DNA of 64,000 bases from Escherichia coli (GTDB lineage Bacteria > Pseudomonadota > Gammaproteobacteria > Enterobacterales > Enterobacteriaceae), in NCBI RefSeq assembly GCF_046105845.1, contig NZ_CP151004.1; one strand, 5' to 3'. Positions 13,653 to 30,845 of the stretch are shown here, one piece after another (the stretch's first letter is position 1; every line of letters starts with the position of its first letter). The notes beneath the pieces are model-generated. The model was not told the DNA's origin. It did no database searches and saw only the letters and a program-made list of their open reading frames with translations. Both the position numbers and the translations under genes were made by a program.

Positions 13653-13829
13653 TGTGATATCGGTCACATAAATATAGGGGGTAGAGAGGTAATTGACGTG
13701 ATACTCATCACAAAACGCTTGTGTAAAAAAGCAACAAGGCGGCGATTTTCGCTAAAAATGGCATTTAAATGTGAGTAATGTCACATTTTTGTTTTGTTGG
13801 TTTGTTGAATCTTTGTGATCTGAATCACA
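13653..13829. promoter_or_regulatory. mtl promoter region with several CRP-type sites
   Basis: TGTGA-N6-TCACA matches: tgtgatatcggtcaca (13653-13668), gtgatactcatcaca (13698-13712), tgtgagtaatgtcaca (13770-13785), tgtgatctgaatcaca (13814-13829). Confidence 0.7.
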
Positions 13830-14045
13830 AGATATTTTTTTACGGCGTTCACCTGATGTGATCTACAGCATGTTATGCCTTCGTCATAAAATCGTTATGT
13901 AACTAAGCAACTCATCACCTCTAAAAATTATTCTTTGGTGTTATGGCGAGAATCGCGAACCCGAATTATTGTCAAAATATCAGCCTGACTCCCTTCTGGC
14001 TGCCAGCCAAAAAACAACACCGATAAACGTGAATCCGAGGCAGAT

Positions 14046-14408
14046 ATGTTTCTAAACTATTTCGCGTTGGGAGTGCTGATCTTCGTCTTTCTGGTGATTT
14101 TTTATGGAATCATCGCGATACATGACATCCCTTATCTGATTGCCAAAAAGCGCAACCATCCCCATGCCGACGCTATTCATACGGCGGGCTGGGTGAGCCT
14201 GTTTACTCTGCATGTTATCTGGCCGTTTCTGTGGATCTGGGCGACGCTCTATCAACCGGAGCGTGGCTGGGGTATGCAGTCACATGTTGCGTCGCAGGAG
14301 AAAGCGACTGACCCGGAAATCGCCGCACTTTCTGACCGAATTTCCCGGCTGGAGCATCAACTCGCCGCCGAGAAAAAGACTGACTATTCCACGTTCCCGG
14401 AGATCTAA
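14046..14408 (+). CDS. yibI: YibI inner-membrane protein
   Basis: 120-aa ORF with hydrophobic N-terminal half; divergent from mtlA, followed at 3 bp by yibH. Confidence 0.75.
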
Positions 14409-14410
14409 TT

Positions 14411-15547
14411 ATGGATCTATTGATCGTTTTAACTTACGTGGCGCTGGCGTGGGCGGTCTTTAAAATCTTCCGCATTCCGGTAAATCAGTGGACGCTGGCG
14501 ACGGCGGCGCTGGGAGGCGTGTTTCTGGTGAGTGGTTTGATTTTGTTGATGAACTACAATCACCCTTACACTTTTACCGCGCAAAAGGCAGTGATTGCGA
14601 TCCCTATCACGCCACAGGTGACGGGAATTGTTACTGAAGTCACCGACAAAAATAATCAGCTTATTCAAAAGGGCGAGGTGCTTTTTAAGCTCGACCCGGT
14701 TCGTTACCAGGCGCGAGTTGACAGACTTCAGGCTGACCTGATGACGGCGACGCATAATATAAAGACGCTGCGCGCGCAGCTCACTGAAGCGCAGGCCAAC
14801 ACCACCCAGGTTTCAGCGGAGCGCGACCGTCTGTTTAAAAATTATCAACGTTACCTGAAAGGCAGCCAGGCGGCGGTGAATCCGTTCTCGGAACGTGACA
14901 TCGACGATGCGCGGCAAAACTTCCTCGCGCAGGACGCGCTGGTGAAAGGCTCGGTGGCGGAGCAGGCGCAGATCCAGAGCCAGCTCGACAGTATGGTTAA
15001 CGGCGAGCAATCGCAGATTGTGAGCTTAAGAGCGCAACTTACTGAAGCAAAATATAACCTTGAGCAGACTGTCATTCGCGCACCGAGCAATGGCTACGTC
15101 ACTCAGGTACTGATCCGCCCAGGTACATACGCCGCTGCCTTGCCGCTGCGTCCGGTGATGGTCTTCATCCCCGAGCAAAAACGGCAAATTGTCGCCCAAT
15201 TTCGGCAAAACTCGCTGTTACGTCTGAAACCCGGCGATGATGCGGAAGTGGTGTTTAACGCGCTACCTGGGCAGGTGTTCCACGGTAAACTGACCAGTAT
15301 TTTACCTGTCGTGCCAGGCGGTTCGTATCAGGCGCAAGGGGTATTGCAATCATTAACGGTCGTGCCCGGCACGGACGGTGTGCTGGGAACCATTGAACTG
15401 GACCCCAACGATGATATCGATGCTTTACCTGACGGCATCTACGCCCAGGTGGCAGTTTACTCCGACCATTTCAGCCATGTTTCGGTGATGCGGAAGGTGC
15501 TGCTGAGAATGACCAGTTGGATGCATTATCTTTATTTGGATCATTGA
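14411..15547 (+). CDS. yibH: YibH, HlyD-family membrane fusion-type protein
   Basis: 378-aa ORF with N-terminal TM segment, long coiled-coil region and C-terminal beta-barrel-like region. Confidence 0.8.
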
Positions 15548-25744: not shown

Positions 25745-25930
25745 GTGAAAAGTGCAGACGTGATCGCCATCCTGAAGCAGCATGGCTGGGAACATATTCG
25801 AACCCGTGGCAGTCATCATCAGTTCCGCCACCCTGTTCATCCGGGTCTGGTGACGGTTCCGCACCCTAAAAAAGATATTAAGCCCGGTACGCTGGCGCAA
25901 ATTGGGCGTCAGGCTGGTTTAACATTTTAA
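25745..25930 (+). CDS. hicA: HicA-family toxin
   Basis: 61-aa basic protein (GTG start) ...LKQHGWEHIRTRGSHHQFRHP...; size and G-S-H-H motif fit HicA; immediately followed by hicB. Confidence 0.75.
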   Translation: MKSADVIAILKQHGWEHIRTRGSHHQFRHPVHPGLVTVPHPKKDIKPGTLAQIGRQAGLTF

Positions 25931-25946
25931 AATTTCAGGAGGCAAT

Positions 25947-26357
25947 ATGTTTTATCCCGCCTATATCCACAGTGATCCTGACGGCAGCGCCAGCGGTTTT
26001 TTCCCTGATGTTCCAGGCTGTTATTTTGCTGGTGATACGCTGGACAACGCTTTCCAGGATGCGCGAAGTGCACTGGTCGCGCACTTCGAAACCTTATGCG
26101 AGATGAATGAAGAGTTGCCGCTTCCAGGCTCTGTGGAAACACATCTGGTCCAGCGTGCGCAGGACTTTATTGGCGGGCAATGGTTGCTGGTGGATATCAA
26201 TATGAATCAATTCGAAGGTCGGGCTGAACGTATCAATATTACGATGCCAAAAAGATTACTGAACAAGATTGATACCTACGTGCGCAATAACCCAGACTAT
26301 GCCAACAGAAGTGCGTTTCTGGCGGAAGCTGCCCGGCGTGTATTGCCGGGCGTTTAA
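25947..26357 (+). CDS. hicB: HicB-family antitoxin with C-terminal ribbon-helix-helix-like region
   Basis: 136 aa; N-terminal HicB-like fold; C-terminal RINITMPKRLLNKIDTYV...RSAFLAEAARR resembles an RHH DNA-binding domain; 16-bp gap after hicA. Confidence 0.75.
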   Translation: MFYPAYIHSDPDGSASGFFPDVPGCYFAGDTLDNAFQDARSALVAHFETLCEMNEELPLPGSVETHLVQRAQDFIGGQWLLVDINMNQFEGRAERINITMPKRLLNKIDTYVRNNPDYANRSAFLAEAARRVLPGV

Positions 26358-26402: not shown

Positions 26403-26432
26403 ACTGATAAGACGCGTTAAGCGTCGCATCAT
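26403..26432. repeat. REP-like element at the hicB / glycosidase 3-prime junction
   Basis: ctgataagacgcgttaagcgtcgcatcatg resembles a REP unit; a partial REP-like gcctgatgcgacg lies near 25500 after aldB. Confidence 0.5.
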
Positions 26433-28393
26433 GCGCTGGTTTCCTCATTCACCCAGATCCGCATTTCGCCTTCACCCCGGTTGGCCCAGCTAAACCACGG
26501 GATAAAGGTCAGGGTTTGCGGCTGGCGTTTGGCTGGCGCACTGTCGTAATGCCACAGCGGTTGTTGTTCTGGATTGCTCTGTTCATACCGGTAACCCGGT
26601 GCCTGGATTAAGATCTTATGGCTGAACAATCCCTTACCTTCAAATGTCGTAAATGGCGCATCGGCGGGCAGCCACAGATTATGCAGTGACTCGCCGTTGT
26701 CGGCCTGTTCCAGGCAATACACCAGCGGGCCGCGCTGAATCGCCACTTTTCCGGCGACGTGACGCACCAGCGGGTTACCGTAAACGCGGCGTACCGGCAT
26801 CGGCAAAGTCAGATTCAGCGTATCGCCCTCCTGCCATTCGCAGGTAATGTGCAAATACCCTTTACGAATATCCTGCTCGACCTCTTCCCCATTCAATATG
26901 ATCTGCGGCTGTGTGCACCAGTCCGGCAGACGTAAAGCCAGCGTATGACGCACCGGCTGGGGCGATTCAACCGCAATTGTCACCTGTTCCTGCCACGGAT
27001 AGTTTCCGCTAACCCGCAGACGCAGCGTGCCATTTTCTACCGGCACTTCCATGCTGTTTCCTGCGTAGATGTTGATATACAACGCATCTTCACGCGGCGT
27101 GTAGAGATAATGACCAATCGAGGTTAGCACGCGGGCGATATTTGGCGGACAACAAGCGCAACCAAACCAACGCTGGCGGATCGGCTTAACGTGATCGTAG
27201 ATATGGTTGAATTTTAACGTTTTTGGATGCACTTCCAGCGGATTAACGTAGAAGAAATGTTTGCCATCCAGCGCCATGCCGCCGAGCACGGTGTTGTACA
27301 GTGCGCGCTCCATCACATCGGCATATTGACTGTCGCCTTCCATTTCCAGCATTCGCCGGGCGAACATCATCAGGCCGATGGAAGCACAGCTTTCGGCGTA
27401 TACCGTGTCATTCGGCAGATCGTAATCGCTGCTGAACGCTTCGCCGCTGCTTTGTGAGCCAATGCCGCCGGTAATATATAACTGACGCTGGGCCATATTG
27501 TTCCACAGCCGCAGGCAGTCCTGACGCTTGCTTTCATCGTGACTTAAACGCGCGAGATGCGCGACACCGGTCATCAGATATACAAAGCGTACTGCATGTC
27601 CGATGGCGGTTTGTTGCTGTGCGATGGGCAAATGCGCCTGGCTGTAGGCTTTATCTTTCACCATCCACGCCGGGCCGTAGGTGTGCCAGTGCGAGGTCTG
27701 CCCGCGCTTTTCATATTCCTGGTCGTAATAGTGCGGTTGCGCACCACGCTGTTCGACAAAATAGTTCGTCAGCGCCAGGTAGCGCGGCTCTTCGGTCACT
27801 TCATACAGGCGCATTAGTGCCAGTTCAATTTCCGGGTGACCAGGATAACCGTGTAACTTACTTTCACCTGGACCAAATACGCTGTCGATATGATCGGCCA
27901 GACGGCAAACCACTTCCAGCAAGCGCCGCTTGCCCGTGGCCTGGAGGAAGGCGACTCCGGCTTCAATCAGATGACCGGCGCAGTAAAGTTCATGACACTC
28001 CGCCAGATTGCTCCAGCGTTCTTCGGGCGCTTTTACCGTAAAGTAAGTATTGAGATAGCCATCTTCGCACTGGGCGGAAGCGACCAGTTCGATTACCTCG
28101 TCAGCGGTTTTTTCCAGTTCGGCATCCGGCTTCTGGCACAGCGACCAGGCTACCGCTTCCAGCCATTTGGCGACGTCGCTGTCCTGAAACACCATCCCGT
28201 AAAATTCACCGTCTTGCAGTCCTGCGGCAATGCGAAAGTTTTCAATCGCATGGCTGGGTTCCGCTTCTGGGATACGATCGTTCAAGGCATCCCACTGATA
28301 AGGAATCACCACGTCGCGGACCAGTTGTTGGTACTGACCGAGGAACGGATCGCTGACCGTCAGTTTATGCAGATCGACTTCCGAAATGTTCAT
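26429..28393 (-). CDS. glycoside hydrolase family 127-like protein (DUF1680 / beta-L-arabinofuranosidase-like)
   Basis: About 654 aa from MNISEVDLHKLTVSDPF; AAGGAG RBS 6 nt upstream of this start; Cys-rich C-terminal half as in HypBA1-type enzymes; assignment is from family resemblance by eye. Confidence 0.65.
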   Translation of the reverse strand: MNISEVDLHKLTVSDPFLGQYQQLVRDVVIPYQWDALNDRIPEAEPSHAIENFRIAAGLQDGEFYGMVFQDSDVAKWLEAVAWSLCQKPDAELEKTADEVIELVASAQCEDGYLNTYFTVKAPEERWSNLAECHELYCAGHLIEAGVAFLQATGKRRLLEVVCRLADHIDSVFGPGESKLHGYPGHPEIELALMRLYEVTEEPRYLALTNYFVEQRGAQPHYYDQEYEKRGQTSHWHTYGPAWMVKDKAYSQAHLPIAQQQTAIGHAVRFVYLMTGVAHLARLSHDESKRQDCLRLWNNMAQRQLYITGGIGSQSSGEAFSSDYDLPNDTVYAESCASIGLMMFARRMLEMEGDSQYADVMERALYNTVLGGMALDGKHFFYVNPLEVHPKTLKFNHIYDHVKPIRQRWFGCACCPPNIARVLTSIGHYLYTPREDALYINIYAGNSMEVPVENGTLRLRVSGNYPWQEQVTIAVESPQPVRHTLALRLPDWCTQPQIILNGEEVEQDIRKGYLHITCEWQEGDTLNLTLPMPVRRVYGNPLVRHVAGKVAIQRGPLVYCLEQADNGESLHNLWLPADAPFTTFEGKGLFSHKILIQAPGYRYEQSNPEQQPLWHYDSAPAKRQPQTLTFIPWFSWANRGEGEMRIWVNEETSA

Positions 28394-28403
28394 CTTGTGC
28401 TCC

Positions 28404-29804
28404 TTAAGGCTGTACATGACGCTGACGCAGGTCGCTAGCTATGCGTGACATCATAGGGTTATTGAGTTTGCAAAAGCGGATCGCCATCGCCAGCAGCAGG
28501 TGGAATAGCGCAGGCAGCAATGTTTCCATCGCCGCGATCCCGCCAAGCGAACTGGCGGTCTGGTTTTCCACGCCTGGCTGGTAGGCGACAAAAATAAACA
28601 GCAGGCTGATGATCCCGGCGCTGGAGGCCCAGGCCAGCTTGATGAAAAACAGATTGAAGGCGAAGTTCATGCCGGAAGAACGTACGCGGGTTTTCCACTC
28701 GCCGTAGTCATCGGCAAAGGCCATCAATGAGAAGTGCAGTGGCAATGTGAAGCCAAGAATCACGCCATTACCGAGGATCACCGCCAGCCACAGCGTTTGA
28801 TAAGCCGGGCCGGAGGGCAGGAACCACATCAACACCGCCAGCGCGGCGAGGAGCAGGTTGGTGTAGTAGTAAATTTTGACGGTATCGAAACGCCGCGTTA
28901 ACGGGCTGACAATCACCGAGCCGATAATGGAGGCGAAGGTGACCATGGTGAAGAACAGCGACGTGTAGCCCGTACTGCCTTGTAAGACGTAGGTAATGAA
29001 GTACATATACCCACCGCCGCGAATATTAAAGACGTTAATCAGCAGGAAAGACATGACCAGCATCAGCAGCAGTTGGTCGTTGTTCCGCAGCCCGGCAAGA
29101 TGTTCGCGCAGGGTAAATTTCCCCATTGTGGAGAGTGGCACCCGTTCACGAACCCAGAAGAAACAGCACAGGAACATCACCACGGCAATGGCGCACAATA
29201 CGCCGACGCCCAGTTGATAGCCGCGCGCGGCATTACCCTGACCGAAGAGATCCACCATCCACGGCAGGCCAACCGAAACCAGAAATCCCGCTACGCCGCA
29301 GAGAACGAATCGCCAGGACTGGCAGGAGATCACTTCATTGTGGCGGGTGGTCATGGTGTTGATCAGCGCGCAGTACGGCACGTTGATGACGGTATAACCG
29401 ACTGAAAGGAGCAGGTAAGTGCCGAACGCCCAGGCGATTTTTACTCCCATGCTGGCATCTGGCACGGTGAACGTCAGGATGCCGATAATGCCGATGGGAA
29501 TGGCAATCCACAACTGCCACGGACGAAAGCGCCCCCAGCGACTTTGCGTCCGGTCGGCAATGACGCCCATCACCGGGTCGGAGATGGCATCAAACACGCG
29601 CAGTGCAATAAACAGCGTGCCGACCAGCGCCGGAGTTAAGCCAAAAACGTCGGTGTAGAAAAAGGTGAGAAAGTTCATGATCAGGCAAGTTATTACGGTG
29701 CCGCCTGCGTCACCCAGGCCGTAGCCTATTTTTTCCCGTACAGATAACGCATCGTCAATTTTACCTTTAGCGATATCAGCGGTAGTAATCGGTGTAGAGG
29801 TCAT
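28404..29804 (-). CDS. GPH-family (glycoside-pentoside-hexuronide) cation symporter
   Basis: 466-aa 12-TM protein; N-terminal GYGLGD motif and overall MelB/YicJ/XynT-like pattern. Confidence 0.8.
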
Positions 29805-30029
29805 AGATATTCCTCGTGAATAGGGAGCAATTTTTAGTTTTATTGCAATGACCTGATTAATTCTGCCGTGAACGGGAATATCAACAAGGCGAGAAAAGAG
29901 TAAAAAAAGGTGACGATTCCGACCTGAATTTAAAAGTGTGAATTGGATCAGGTGAAATTAATGTTTTTGATTAATAATCAAAAGGTAATGTGTTTAATCA
30001 TTAATGAATAAGCGGGAAATTACATATCA

Positions 30030-30845
30030 ATGCTCGAATTATCCATGACGTTACCGATTAAAGTGCAAAATGGTGGATTATTTATTTCCCGTGGCGTAGG
30101 GAGGCATCCGGCAAGGCGGCTGGAGTCATGGGAAATTATCTTTGTCGAAAAAGGTCGATTAACGATTCAGGAAGAAGAGCGGATATTTCTGGTCGATGCG
30201 GGAGAGAGTTTATTACTCTGGCCGAACCGACAGCATGTTGGGGTAGAGGATTTTCCCGCCGATCTCAAATTTTACTGGCTGCATTTTGAGGTTAAAGCGC
30301 CGGATAGCGACCCGCGCTGGCTCACTCATCTTAGCGTGCCGCAACAAACGAAGGTTGCCGATCCGCAGGCGCTGGTGGCCCTGTTTCGCCAGTTCTTAAG
30401 CGAACAGGAAAAGCATCAGCGCACTCCGGCGCTGGAGTTTATTGTGCTGCTGATTTTGCAGCAACTCACCCGTGACGCGCGTCTTGATGAACAGGCCGAT
30501 GCCGCAGGTACCACGCTTGCCTGGAAAGCGCAGAAACTGATCCGCACGCAATATCATCGCCCGCTTTCCACGGCGCTTTTAGCCCGCGAGCTGTACTGCA
30601 ATGCCGATTATCTTGGGCGCGTCTATCGGCGGGTGTTTCATCTGACGTTAACAGAAGCAATCCATCGCCAGCGAGTGCGCGAAGCCGAAAAGCTGTTAAT
30701 TAGCGAAGCGCGATCGCTCACTGAAGTGGCTGCGTTGTGCGGGTTTAATGACGTTGGCTATTTCCGGCAGATTTTTCGCAAACACACCGGTTTAACGCCA
30801 GCAGCGTGGAAGCGGCGTTACAGCAAGGAACATATCAATTCGTAG
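30030..30845 (+). CDS. AraC/XylS-family transcriptional regulator
   Basis: 271-aa ORF with cupin-like N-terminal sugar-binding region and C-terminal AraC-type HTH; divergent from the symporter. Confidence 0.8.
   Translation: MLELSMTLPIKVQNGGLFISRGVGRHPARRLESWEIIFVEKGRLTIQEEERIFLVDAGESLLLWPNRQHVGVEDFPADLKFYWLHFEVKAPDSDPRWLTHLSVPQQTKVADPQALVALFRQFLSEQEKHQRTPALEFIVLLILQQLTRDARLDEQADAAGTTLAWKAQKLIRTQYHRPLSTALLARELYCNADYLGRVYRRVFHLTLTEAIHRQRVREAEKLLISEARSLTEVAALCGFNDVGYFRQIFRKHTGLTPAAWKRRYSKEHINS

Follow-up and report, generated by a model that had tools for sequence, protein, structure and literature searches.

The 225-bp gap between a GPH-family symporter gene and an AraC-family regulator gene in the DNA analyzed here (a 64,000-nucleotide stretch of Escherichia coli, referred to as the window) is, in our judgment, reasonably likely to be a divergent promoter region that combines an AraC-type regulator with CRP, in the design of araC-araBAD, rhaSR-rhaBAD, and melR-melAB, and that serves a GPH-GH127 cassette. 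The initial annotation had described a divergent AT-rich control region between the GPH symporter and AraC-family genes. Its coordinates were right, and the low GC content and the presence of conserved blocks agree with this description. The main element of the gap, a 47-bp block referred to as F2 (29882 to 29928), was overlooked in that annotation. The gap and its neighboring genes are as follows.

26429 to 28393, minus strand: GH127 gene, gene 2 of the operon (PF07944, PF20736, PF20737)
28404 to 29804, minus strand: GPH-family (MFS_2) sugar:cation symporter gene, gene 1 of the operon (TIGR00792, PF13347)
29805 to 30029: divergent control region (intergenic), 225 bp, 32% GC (51% across the window)
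30030 to 30845, plus strand: AraC/XylS-family regulator gene (PF02311, PF12833, PF00165)

Regarding the flanking genes, the symporter scored 333.7 bits against TIGR00792 (gph; cut-off, 231) and also matched PF13347. The start of the GH127 gene (28393) is the RefSeq-annotated start in L001, transferred to window coordinates; the longest open reading frame (ORF) extends to 28417. The nearest solved structure is 4qjy (GH127 beta-L-arabinofuranosidase; E = 8e-234), followed by HypBA1 (3wkw; 1.8e-152), and the GH127 product is probably a beta-L-arabinofuranosidase on the basis of sequence similarity. The regulator has the AraC/XylS-type architecture of an N-terminal ligand-binding/dimerization domain (PF02311, AraC_binding cupin, residues 26 to 132) and a C-terminal double helix-turn-helix (HTH) domain (PF12833, residues 184 to 263; PF00165 also matched), and it scored below the cut-off of every NCBIfam equivalog. 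Its gene is adjacent and divergent to the transport/catabolic operon, and the same order is found in distant homologous loci.

The window is a piece of E. coli chromosome that is 98.6% identical to many complete genomes, with the cassette located between hicAB/aldB and sgbE. The gap was found in 2,313 of 5,426 complete E. coli genomes (~43%) with an identity of at least 98.8%. In K-12, the segment corresponding to window positions 26721 to 30741 is deleted; the regulator gene survives there as its 3' end (pseudogene ysaC) and the GH127 gene as a piece (pseudogene ysaD). Given that the cassette also adjoins sgbE in 35 of 80 orthologous loci of other genera (described below), its position is ancestral and the K-12 state a deletion. 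The GPH-GH127-AraC cassette is itself ancestral and occurs widely in Enterobacterales, with the aldB/sgbE position retained in many genera. The K-12 deletion accounts for the absence of the cassette from regulatory databases. Literature searches that combined GH127 with E. coli, AraC, or Enterobacteriaceae brought up no work on the locus; one preprint describes the prevalence of GH127 in E. coli as clade dependent.

To locate conserved elements in the gap, we scanned one genome per species and obtained 80 orthologous loci, including those of Citrobacter, Salmonella diarizonae, Enterobacter, Klebsiella, Raoultella, Kluyvera, Leclercia, Lelliottia, Kosakonia, Pantoea, Buttiauxella, Cedecea, Hafnia, Mangrovibacter, and others. 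Their regulators were 57 to 94% identical to that of the window. The complete gap could be extracted from 77 loci, all 77 of which had the divergent arrangement, and the window was aligned with these 77 other Enterobacterales species using MAFFT (78 species in total). A majority base was shared by at least 90% of the species at 52 of the 225 gap positions, which were grouped in four blocks (F1 to F4). As the neutral reference, fourfold-degenerate sites were taken from the first 150 codons of the two flanking genes, and 3 of 72 reached this level. It is the conservation of the gap, rather than the statistics of any single motif, that places the gap above the chance level. The conserved stretches were contiguous invariant blocks of 5 to 14 bp. 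The single nucleotide polymorphisms (SNPs) among E. coli genomes and all 22 gap differences in the sister species Escherichia whittamii missed the positions conserved at 90% or more. Footprinting within E. coli alone was powerless because the copies are too alike. The start codons and Shine-Dalgarno sequences of both flanking genes were also conserved among the 77 loci. The elements of the gap are as follows.

29810 to 29815, minus strand: transporter Shine-Dalgarno sequence GAGGAA, kept together with the ATG in orthologous loci
29851 to 29866, minus strand: F1, putative core promoter/start-site region, AC....TT.ATT.TGC; 8 of 16 positions conserved at 90% or more
29860 to 29865, minus strand: predicted -10 element CAGAAT of the transporter-GH127 promoter; A2 and T6 in 96% of species
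29882 to 29887, minus strand: predicted weak -35 element TTGTTG, with a 16-bp spacer to the -10 element; TTG 100% conserved
29882 to 29928: F2, 47-bp near-invariant block, CAACAAGG..A...AAAAGTA.AAAAAG.TGA..ATTCCGAC.T; 30 of 47 positions conserved at 90% or more
29900 to 29926, minus strand: putative high-affinity (I1-like) regulator box, CAGGTCGGAATCGTCACCTTTTTTTAC
29909 to 29925, plus strand: core of the box, G.GAC.ATTCCGACCT
29934 to 29955: F3, CRP-like 22-mer AAGTGTGAATTGGATCAGGTGA; 16-bp core at 29937 to 29952, center at 29944.5
29968 to 29981, plus strand: F4, T..TTAATAATCA, ~85% conserved; contains the predicted -10 element AATAAT of the regulator gene (29973 to 29978)
29998 to 30007: palindrome tcattaatga, of neutral conservation and with no sign of function
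30012 to 30017, plus strand: regulator Shine-Dalgarno region GCGGGA; AGCGGGAAAT conserved at 70 to 88%

The blocks are held at fixed distances from one another. In the raw sequences, and counting from TGTGA of F3, ATTCCGAC was located at -21 (76 of 77 species), ACAAG at -53, and ATT.TGC at -77 (72 of 77), while AATAATCA was located at +36 in 60 of 77 species. Depending on the species, TGTGA was 122 to 290 bp away from the transporter ATG, and this variation in length was confined to the stretch between the ATG and F1, which fits a 5' untranslated region (5'UTR) with a start site near F1.

The most conserved of the four blocks, F2, is probably the operator of the AraC-family regulator, and the argument comes mainly from distant relatives of the cassette. 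We searched 1.84 billion representative proteins without a profile and looked up the genomic context of the matches, which revealed that regulators 41 to 59% identical to that of the window still adjoin GH127 genes. The box G.GAC.ATTCCGACCT is kept at these loci, including those of genomes with 61 to 70% GC that are otherwise unlike the window in this region. Its retention alongside the regulator in genomes as different as these makes the box the probable operator. Read from the box toward the enzyme gene, the window contains AGGTCGGAATCGTCACCTTTTTTTAC-N12-TTGTTG-N16-CAGAAT. The corresponding sequences are AAGTCGGAATCGCCACGCTTTTGTAC-N12-TTACTC-N18-TAAAAT at L086, AGGTCGGAATTGTCTCTATTTTATAC-N12-TTGCCG-N17-CAAGAT at L094 (61% GC), and AGGTCGGAATCGTCCCGC...TTGCCA-N17-CAAGAT at L089 (70% GC), where a second copy of the box is present; L091 has the promoter elements of the window and also its box, the latter altered at a few bases. 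The pattern TTGnnn-N16-18-(C/T)AnnAT therefore recurs at a 39-nt offset from the box in distant loci, and this reproduction at an equal offset supports the assignment of the -35 and -10 elements.

The TGTGA element was absent from the high-GC homologous loci, at which the regulator ATG directly follows the box. At L086, where a GPH fragment is 65% identical to the transporter of the window, TGTGATGCAGTTCAAT (TGTGA-N6-TCAAT, without GATC) lies 22 bp from ATTCCGAC and is nearer to the CRP consensus. Given that the box is kept where F3 is absent, F3 is a separable module outside the operator. The spacer at L086 differs by 2 bp and the CRP offset by 1 bp, which would amount to a change in helical phase if the promoter assignment is right.

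Relative to the predicted leftward start, F2 would extend from about -30 to -76 and overlap the -35 element. AraC-family proteins normally bind asymmetric half-sites of ~17 to 18 bp arranged as repeats, and the period of AraC I1-I2 is 21 bp (i.e., 17-bp half-sites, 4 bp apart) (PMC11983282). The best internal direct repeat of F2 (AACAAGGgaA versus AAAAAGaTGA) also has an offset of 21 bp, and the proximal part of the block (29882 to 29902), which overlaps the -35 element, has a weak likeness to the distal box in the form of an AA.AAGG..A repeat. Being rich in A, this 21-bp repeat may be a chance likeness. When we looked for other members of the regulon, the F2 motif occurred a single time at each locus and in each E. 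coli genome, and the regulon appears, from motif occurrence, to be local to the cassette. A reading of ACGATTCCGAC as a GalR/LacI-type operator was rejected, as the block has no dyad symmetry by eye or by inverted-repeat scores.

Regarding the promoters, an unbiased scan for -10-like hexamers in which A2 and T6 are kept identified CAGAAT (minus strand) and AATAAT (plus strand; 85%) as the best conserved. TTGTTG (minus strand) holds the only 100% conserved TTG in the gap, and AATAAT is the best mean match to TATAAT in the whole gap (4.31 of 6). The promoter of the regulator gene has no conserved TTG where a -35 element would lie. Fifteen species (the Buttiauxella, Cedecea, Hafnia, and Mangrovibacter group) lack F4, and all of them keep F2 and F3. 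From these elements, we infer a leftward start at ~29852 to 29853 and a rightward start at ~29985 to 29986, ~133 bp apart. A scan of the gap for consensus sigma-70 promoters and terminators found nothing; promoters that depend on an activator would be expected to lack a consensus sigma-70 sequence. We also considered whether the invariant GC at -13/-12 could belong to a sigma-54 promoter and rejected this, as no conserved GG was seen by eye 12 bp upstream.

F3 is likely a cAMP-CRP site. The initial annotation had quoted aaagtgtgaattggatcaggtga, which is present at 29933 to 29955, as a "CRP-like half-site." The element is conserved, with TGTGA and the TC of the second half invariant at a fixed spacing in the 78 species, which is the outcome that the proposed comparison of orthologous loci called for; the term "half-site" undersells it, since the key bases of its two halves, G and C, are both there. 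The conserved pattern AAAnTGTGAnnnnGATC occupies 29933 to 29949. Within it, TGTGA (29937 to 29941) and GATC (29946 to 29949) were 99 to 100% invariant, and the neighboring positions were neutral. The right half of F3 is TCAGG, and GATC includes the TC that forms its conserved part. The G at position 4 of the CRP box corresponds to G29940 and the C at position 13 to C29949, both of which were 100% invariant; genomic SELEX identified this G and C as the key CRP bases (PMC3105977). The right half was never TCACA (A17, 4%; C18, 6%; and A19, 15% of species). With a weight matrix built from 68 RegulonDB CRP sites (Table S4 in PMC3105977), F3 scored 8.3 bits, corresponding to the 71st percentile of the 68 sites, and the median of its orthologs was 6.5 bits. 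By itself, the match does not exceed the chance level: equal or better matches to the matrix numbered 35 in 64 kb (i.e., ~0.12 expected per 225 bp), F3 was the top-scoring 16-mer of its own gap in 34 of 78 species with another scoring higher in 44, and TGTGA-N6-TCACA with up to two mismatches occurred 34 times in the window compared with 26 ± 5 times in shuffled sequences.

The position of F3 is consistent with this assignment. Its center would be at -91.5/-92.5 from the predicted leftward start and at -40.5/-41.5 from the predicted rightward start, and RegulonDB places CRP at -93.5 at araBAD, -92.5 at rhaBAD, and -41.5 at melR (Table S4 in PMC3105977). At PBAD and PRha, CRP lies just upstream of the half-sites that overlap the -35 element and also enhances the divergent regulator promoters (PMC11983282). 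Of the expectation that the cassette is under catabolite control, which had also been put forward in the initial annotation, the conserved CRP-like site is what we could confirm; binding of CRP to it is a prediction. We also considered a CRP-S (Sxy-dependent) site. Such sites have TGCGA half-sites (C6/G17) and retain C18 (PMC1635313). F3 has T6 in the left half in 100% of species and, in the right half, G17 in 65% and C18 in 6%, and this candidate was rejected.

G29946 and A29947 were invariant, and the preference of CRP at these positions is close to nil (0.03 to 0.08 bits), which indicates that something besides CRP constrains F3. One explanation is that F3 is an additional site of the cassette's own regulator, used for autoregulation or looping in the manner of araO1/O2 or MelR site R, or a site of another, possibly Dam-sensitive, factor. 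The invariant GA of GATC and the AAA flank exceed what the CRP matrix explains, CRP consensus bases are scarce in the second half-site, and the location of F3 at about -48 to -32 of the predicted regulator promoter is a plausible place for autoregulation; there is also a weak likeness between AAAAGaTGA in F2 and AAAnTGTGA in F3 at a 28-bp offset. We nevertheless consider this explanation unlikely. F3 is unlike the box G.GAC.ATTCCGACCT that accompanies the regulator, the distant loci retain that box without F3, and the sole non-enteric locus with an element at this place has a form that is nearer to CRP and that does not include GATC. The two HTH motifs of an AraC-family monomer are expected to be ~10.5 to 12 bp apart, as at AraC and MarA sites, and the conserved segments of F3 are only 8.5 bp apart from center to center. 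Furthermore, TGTGA-N6-TC retains exactly the two key CRP contacts. A related reading, to which we assign a low probability, is that F3 is a composite element whose occupancy is tied to the neighboring regulator and may be linked to Dam methylation; it is prompted by the invariant GA that CRP does not explain and by the second half-site being kept weak. Wang and Church are said to have described, in 1992, CRP-protected nonmethylated GATC sites upstream of mtl, gut, and cdd. If the composite/Dam reading were true, it would imply obligate codependence, or heritable on/off heterogeneity, of a clade-variable cassette.

Other readings concern the remainder of the gap. The transporter promoter might instead use TATACT inside F2 (minus strand; 29899 to 29904; start at ~29892), which would shift F3 to ~-52 and make F1 an operator or an element of the 5'UTR. 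TATACT, with five of six consensus matches, is present in the majority sequence, and F1, which could be a second operator, has a sequence (ATTcTGCac) similar to that of the box core ATTCCGACC at an offset of 56 bp. However, the key -11 A of this hexamer is the least conserved position of F2 (T in Escherichia, C. amalonaticus, C. sedlakii, and S. diarizonae), and the mean match of the hexamer to TATAAT is 2.87. In addition, distant homologs place TTGnnn-N16-18-CAnnAT at the F1 and -35 positions, outside the box, and the segment of variable length starts just downstream of F1. This promoter thus seems improbable to us. We consider it very unlikely that the palindromes gattaataatc (29969 to 29979) and tcattaatga are sites of a sugar-responsive regulator, as the initial annotation had suggested. 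Both are present as quoted, and the right part of gattaataatc falls in a block that is 85% conserved, but neither is conserved as a palindrome in the orthologous gaps. The left arm of gattaataatc (G29969/A29970) has a majority of 38 to 47%, the conserved unit there being T..TTAATAATCA with the -10-like TAATAATCA, and the sequence is absent from the 15 species that keep F2 and F3. In E. whittamii, tcattaatga, which is otherwise neutral, is destroyed by changes at 7 of its 10 bases. The number of palindromes with arms of at least 5 bases is not significant (3, compared with 0.77 ± 0.93 expected; 5.7% of shuffled sequences reach 3; P of ~0.06), and AraC-family regulators use asymmetric half-sites arranged as repeats, with the distant homologs sharing a different box. 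Conservation arising from a transcribed element (i.e., a structured leader, small RNA, or small ORF) has hardly any probability in our view. Part of the region must be 5'UTR, and a 22-codon ORF with a TTG start occurs at 29943 to 30011; it is the only ORF in the gap, however, and its 3' two-thirds is unconserved. The invariant blocks have no three-base periodicity. Rfam gave no match to the gap at E values up to 1, and with RNAalifold neither strand yielded a consensus structure, the energy (0.0) being equal to that of column shuffles.

We therefore return to the divergent AraC-plus-CRP arrangement, which would operate as follows. A weak sigma-70 promoter (TTGTTG and CAGAAT; start at ~29852/3) would drive the transporter-GH127 operon and would require the cassette's own AraC-family regulator. 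The regulator is predicted to occupy F2 through two half-sites, the distal one strong (G.GAC.ATTCCGACCT) and the proximal one degenerate and overlapping the -35 element, and the sugar-bound form would presumably activate, rather than repress, the operon. The sugar is likely to be an L-arabinofuranoside, an arabino-oligosaccharide, or a product of one; the combination of GH127 with a GPH transporter suggests a beta-L-arabinofuranoside as the inducer. The putative cAMP-CRP site lies 4 bp upstream of F2, with its consensus TGTGA half toward the operator and a weak half that keeps only TC. From near -92, CRP would coactivate the operon and place it under catabolite control. The same CRP dimer, near -41 of the regulator promoter (AATAAT, without a -35 element), would make that promoter Class II CRP dependent, as at melR. 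This Class II arrangement at the regulator promoter does not extend to all species, given that 15 species have F3 without F4.

Among the well-known systems, araC-araBAD is similar to the cassette in its divergent genes, in a regulator with cupin and double-HTH domains, and, as predicted for the cassette, in an operator of ~45 bp overlapping a weak -35 element. In both systems a single CRP site just upstream of the operator serves, or in the cassette would serve, both divergent promoters. The araBAD CRP site (TGTGACGCCGTGCAAA) has a left half and flank (AAAGTGTGA) identical to those of F3, in the same orientation and with one degenerate half. The two systems differ in that the cassette regulator is just a remote relative of AraC (61.5 bits, compared with a cut-off of 208 for the AraC equivalog) and its probable operator is unrelated in sequence to that of AraC (TAGC-N7-TCCATA). 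Unlike the araC region, the cassette has no counterpart of araO2, as a gap of 225 bp leaves no room for such a distal site and a search of the vicinity gave none, and CRP is at -72.5 of araC but would be at ~-41 of the predicted regulator promoter.

The melR-melAB region likewise has an AraC-family gene divergent from an operon for a GPH symporter (MelB) and a glycosidase (MelA), and CRP acts there together with the regulator at the structural operon, as proposed for the cassette. The melR promoter lacks a -35 element, and its activity requires CRP, whose site at -41.5 covers that position (PMC2377442). However, mel has two CRP sites and five 18-bp MelR sites over the 237 bp between its starts, whereas the cassette has one CRP-like site, and no conserved site comparable to MelR site R lies over the predicted start of the cassette's regulator gene. 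At rhaBAD, as predicted for the cassette, CRP directly precedes a ~50-bp footprint of the activator, which extends over the -35 element; the -35 and -10 elements are weak, and the CRP position (-92.5) equals that predicted here. The RhaS half-sites are inverted repeats 14 to 16 bp apart, in contrast to the 21-bp direct repeat of F2, and rha uses a cascade of two regulators, compared with one in the cassette. Regarding the enzyme, the putative beta-L-arabinofuranosidase of the cassette has the full three-domain architecture of HypBA1 and of the Geobacillus GH127, and its nearest structure, 4qjy, is of the Geobacillus type. The GH127 systems of Bifidobacterium and Geobacillus are under other types of regulators and are not known to involve CRP.

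The proposed design repeats that of araBAD, rhaBAD, and melAB and changes no concept; the cassette itself is unstudied. The map predicts a sugar-inducible, catabolite-repressible use of plant-derived L-arabinofuranoside by enteric bacteria. Given at base resolution, it may aid annotation and the finding of the inducer, and the gap may provide a new orthogonal inducible promoter.

The GATC at 29946-29949, a Dam site within the CRP-like element (29934..29955) of the control region, was kept in 77 of the 78 species (the window included); S. diarizonae carries GGTC in its place. CRP preferences do not account for the conservation of the GA of this tetranucleotide. Elsewhere in the window, four near-consensus CRP boxes (TGTGATATCGGTCACA, CGTGATACTCATCACA, TGTGAGTAATGTCACA, and TGTGATCTGAATCACA) were detected inside 180 bp at 13653-13829, and these were the top four matches of the whole window to the CRP matrix (10.7 to 14.1 bits). 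Judging from the K-12 gene order, these boxes presumably belong to the promoter region of mtlA.

In the alignment of the orthologous loci, a GC-rich hairpin of 25 to 40 nt (e.g., CCCGC...GCGGG) was found inserted in the transporter 5' untranslated region of many genera, between aligned window positions 29831 and 29832. The carriers include Klebsiella, Raoultella, the Citrobacter freundii group, Pantoea, and Kosakonia; Escherichia is without it. Either a REP-like insertion or a structure in the leader could account for the hairpin.

The following window coordinates concern the loss of the cassette from K-12 and a neighboring gene pair.

25745-26357, HicA/HicB toxin-antitoxin pair, between aldB and the GH127 gene
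26531-26720, first segment remaining in K-12
30742-30845, second segment remaining in K-12

The two remaining segments together correspond to positions 4814-5110 of the K-12 locus (L085), where two pseudogenes survive: ysaD is a relic of the GH127 gene, and ysaC is what is left of the AraC-family gene at its 3' end. The sequence at 26721-30741, and the entire control region with it, is deleted in K-12. Furthermore, the position of hicAB in the window strain is occupied by yiaTUVW in K-12; among the other loci, 11 have a hicB homologue beside the cassette. The window also contains, at 14037-15545, a membrane-fusion/DUF3302 pair (probably yibH-yibI) that is paralogous to K-12 yiaV-yiaW (69% DNA identity).

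In the locus of E. coli ETEC4071, an IS1 junction falls at window position 29903, about halfway through the conserved block that is the probable operator (29882-29928). This IS1 directly follows selB, and the region from selB to the control region is therefore gone, including the transporter and GH127 genes, hicAB, and aldB. The regulator gene of this strain retains only half of its control region.

A distant homologous locus on a metagenomic contig with 70% GC (L089, positions 4374-4500) contains the regulator box in two direct copies approximately 76 bp apart. Between these copies lie two overlapping promoters that face each other (TTGACG-N17-CAAGAT on one strand and TTGCCA-N17-CAAGAT on the other), a sequence layout that suggests a looping or repression design, unlike the enteric one.
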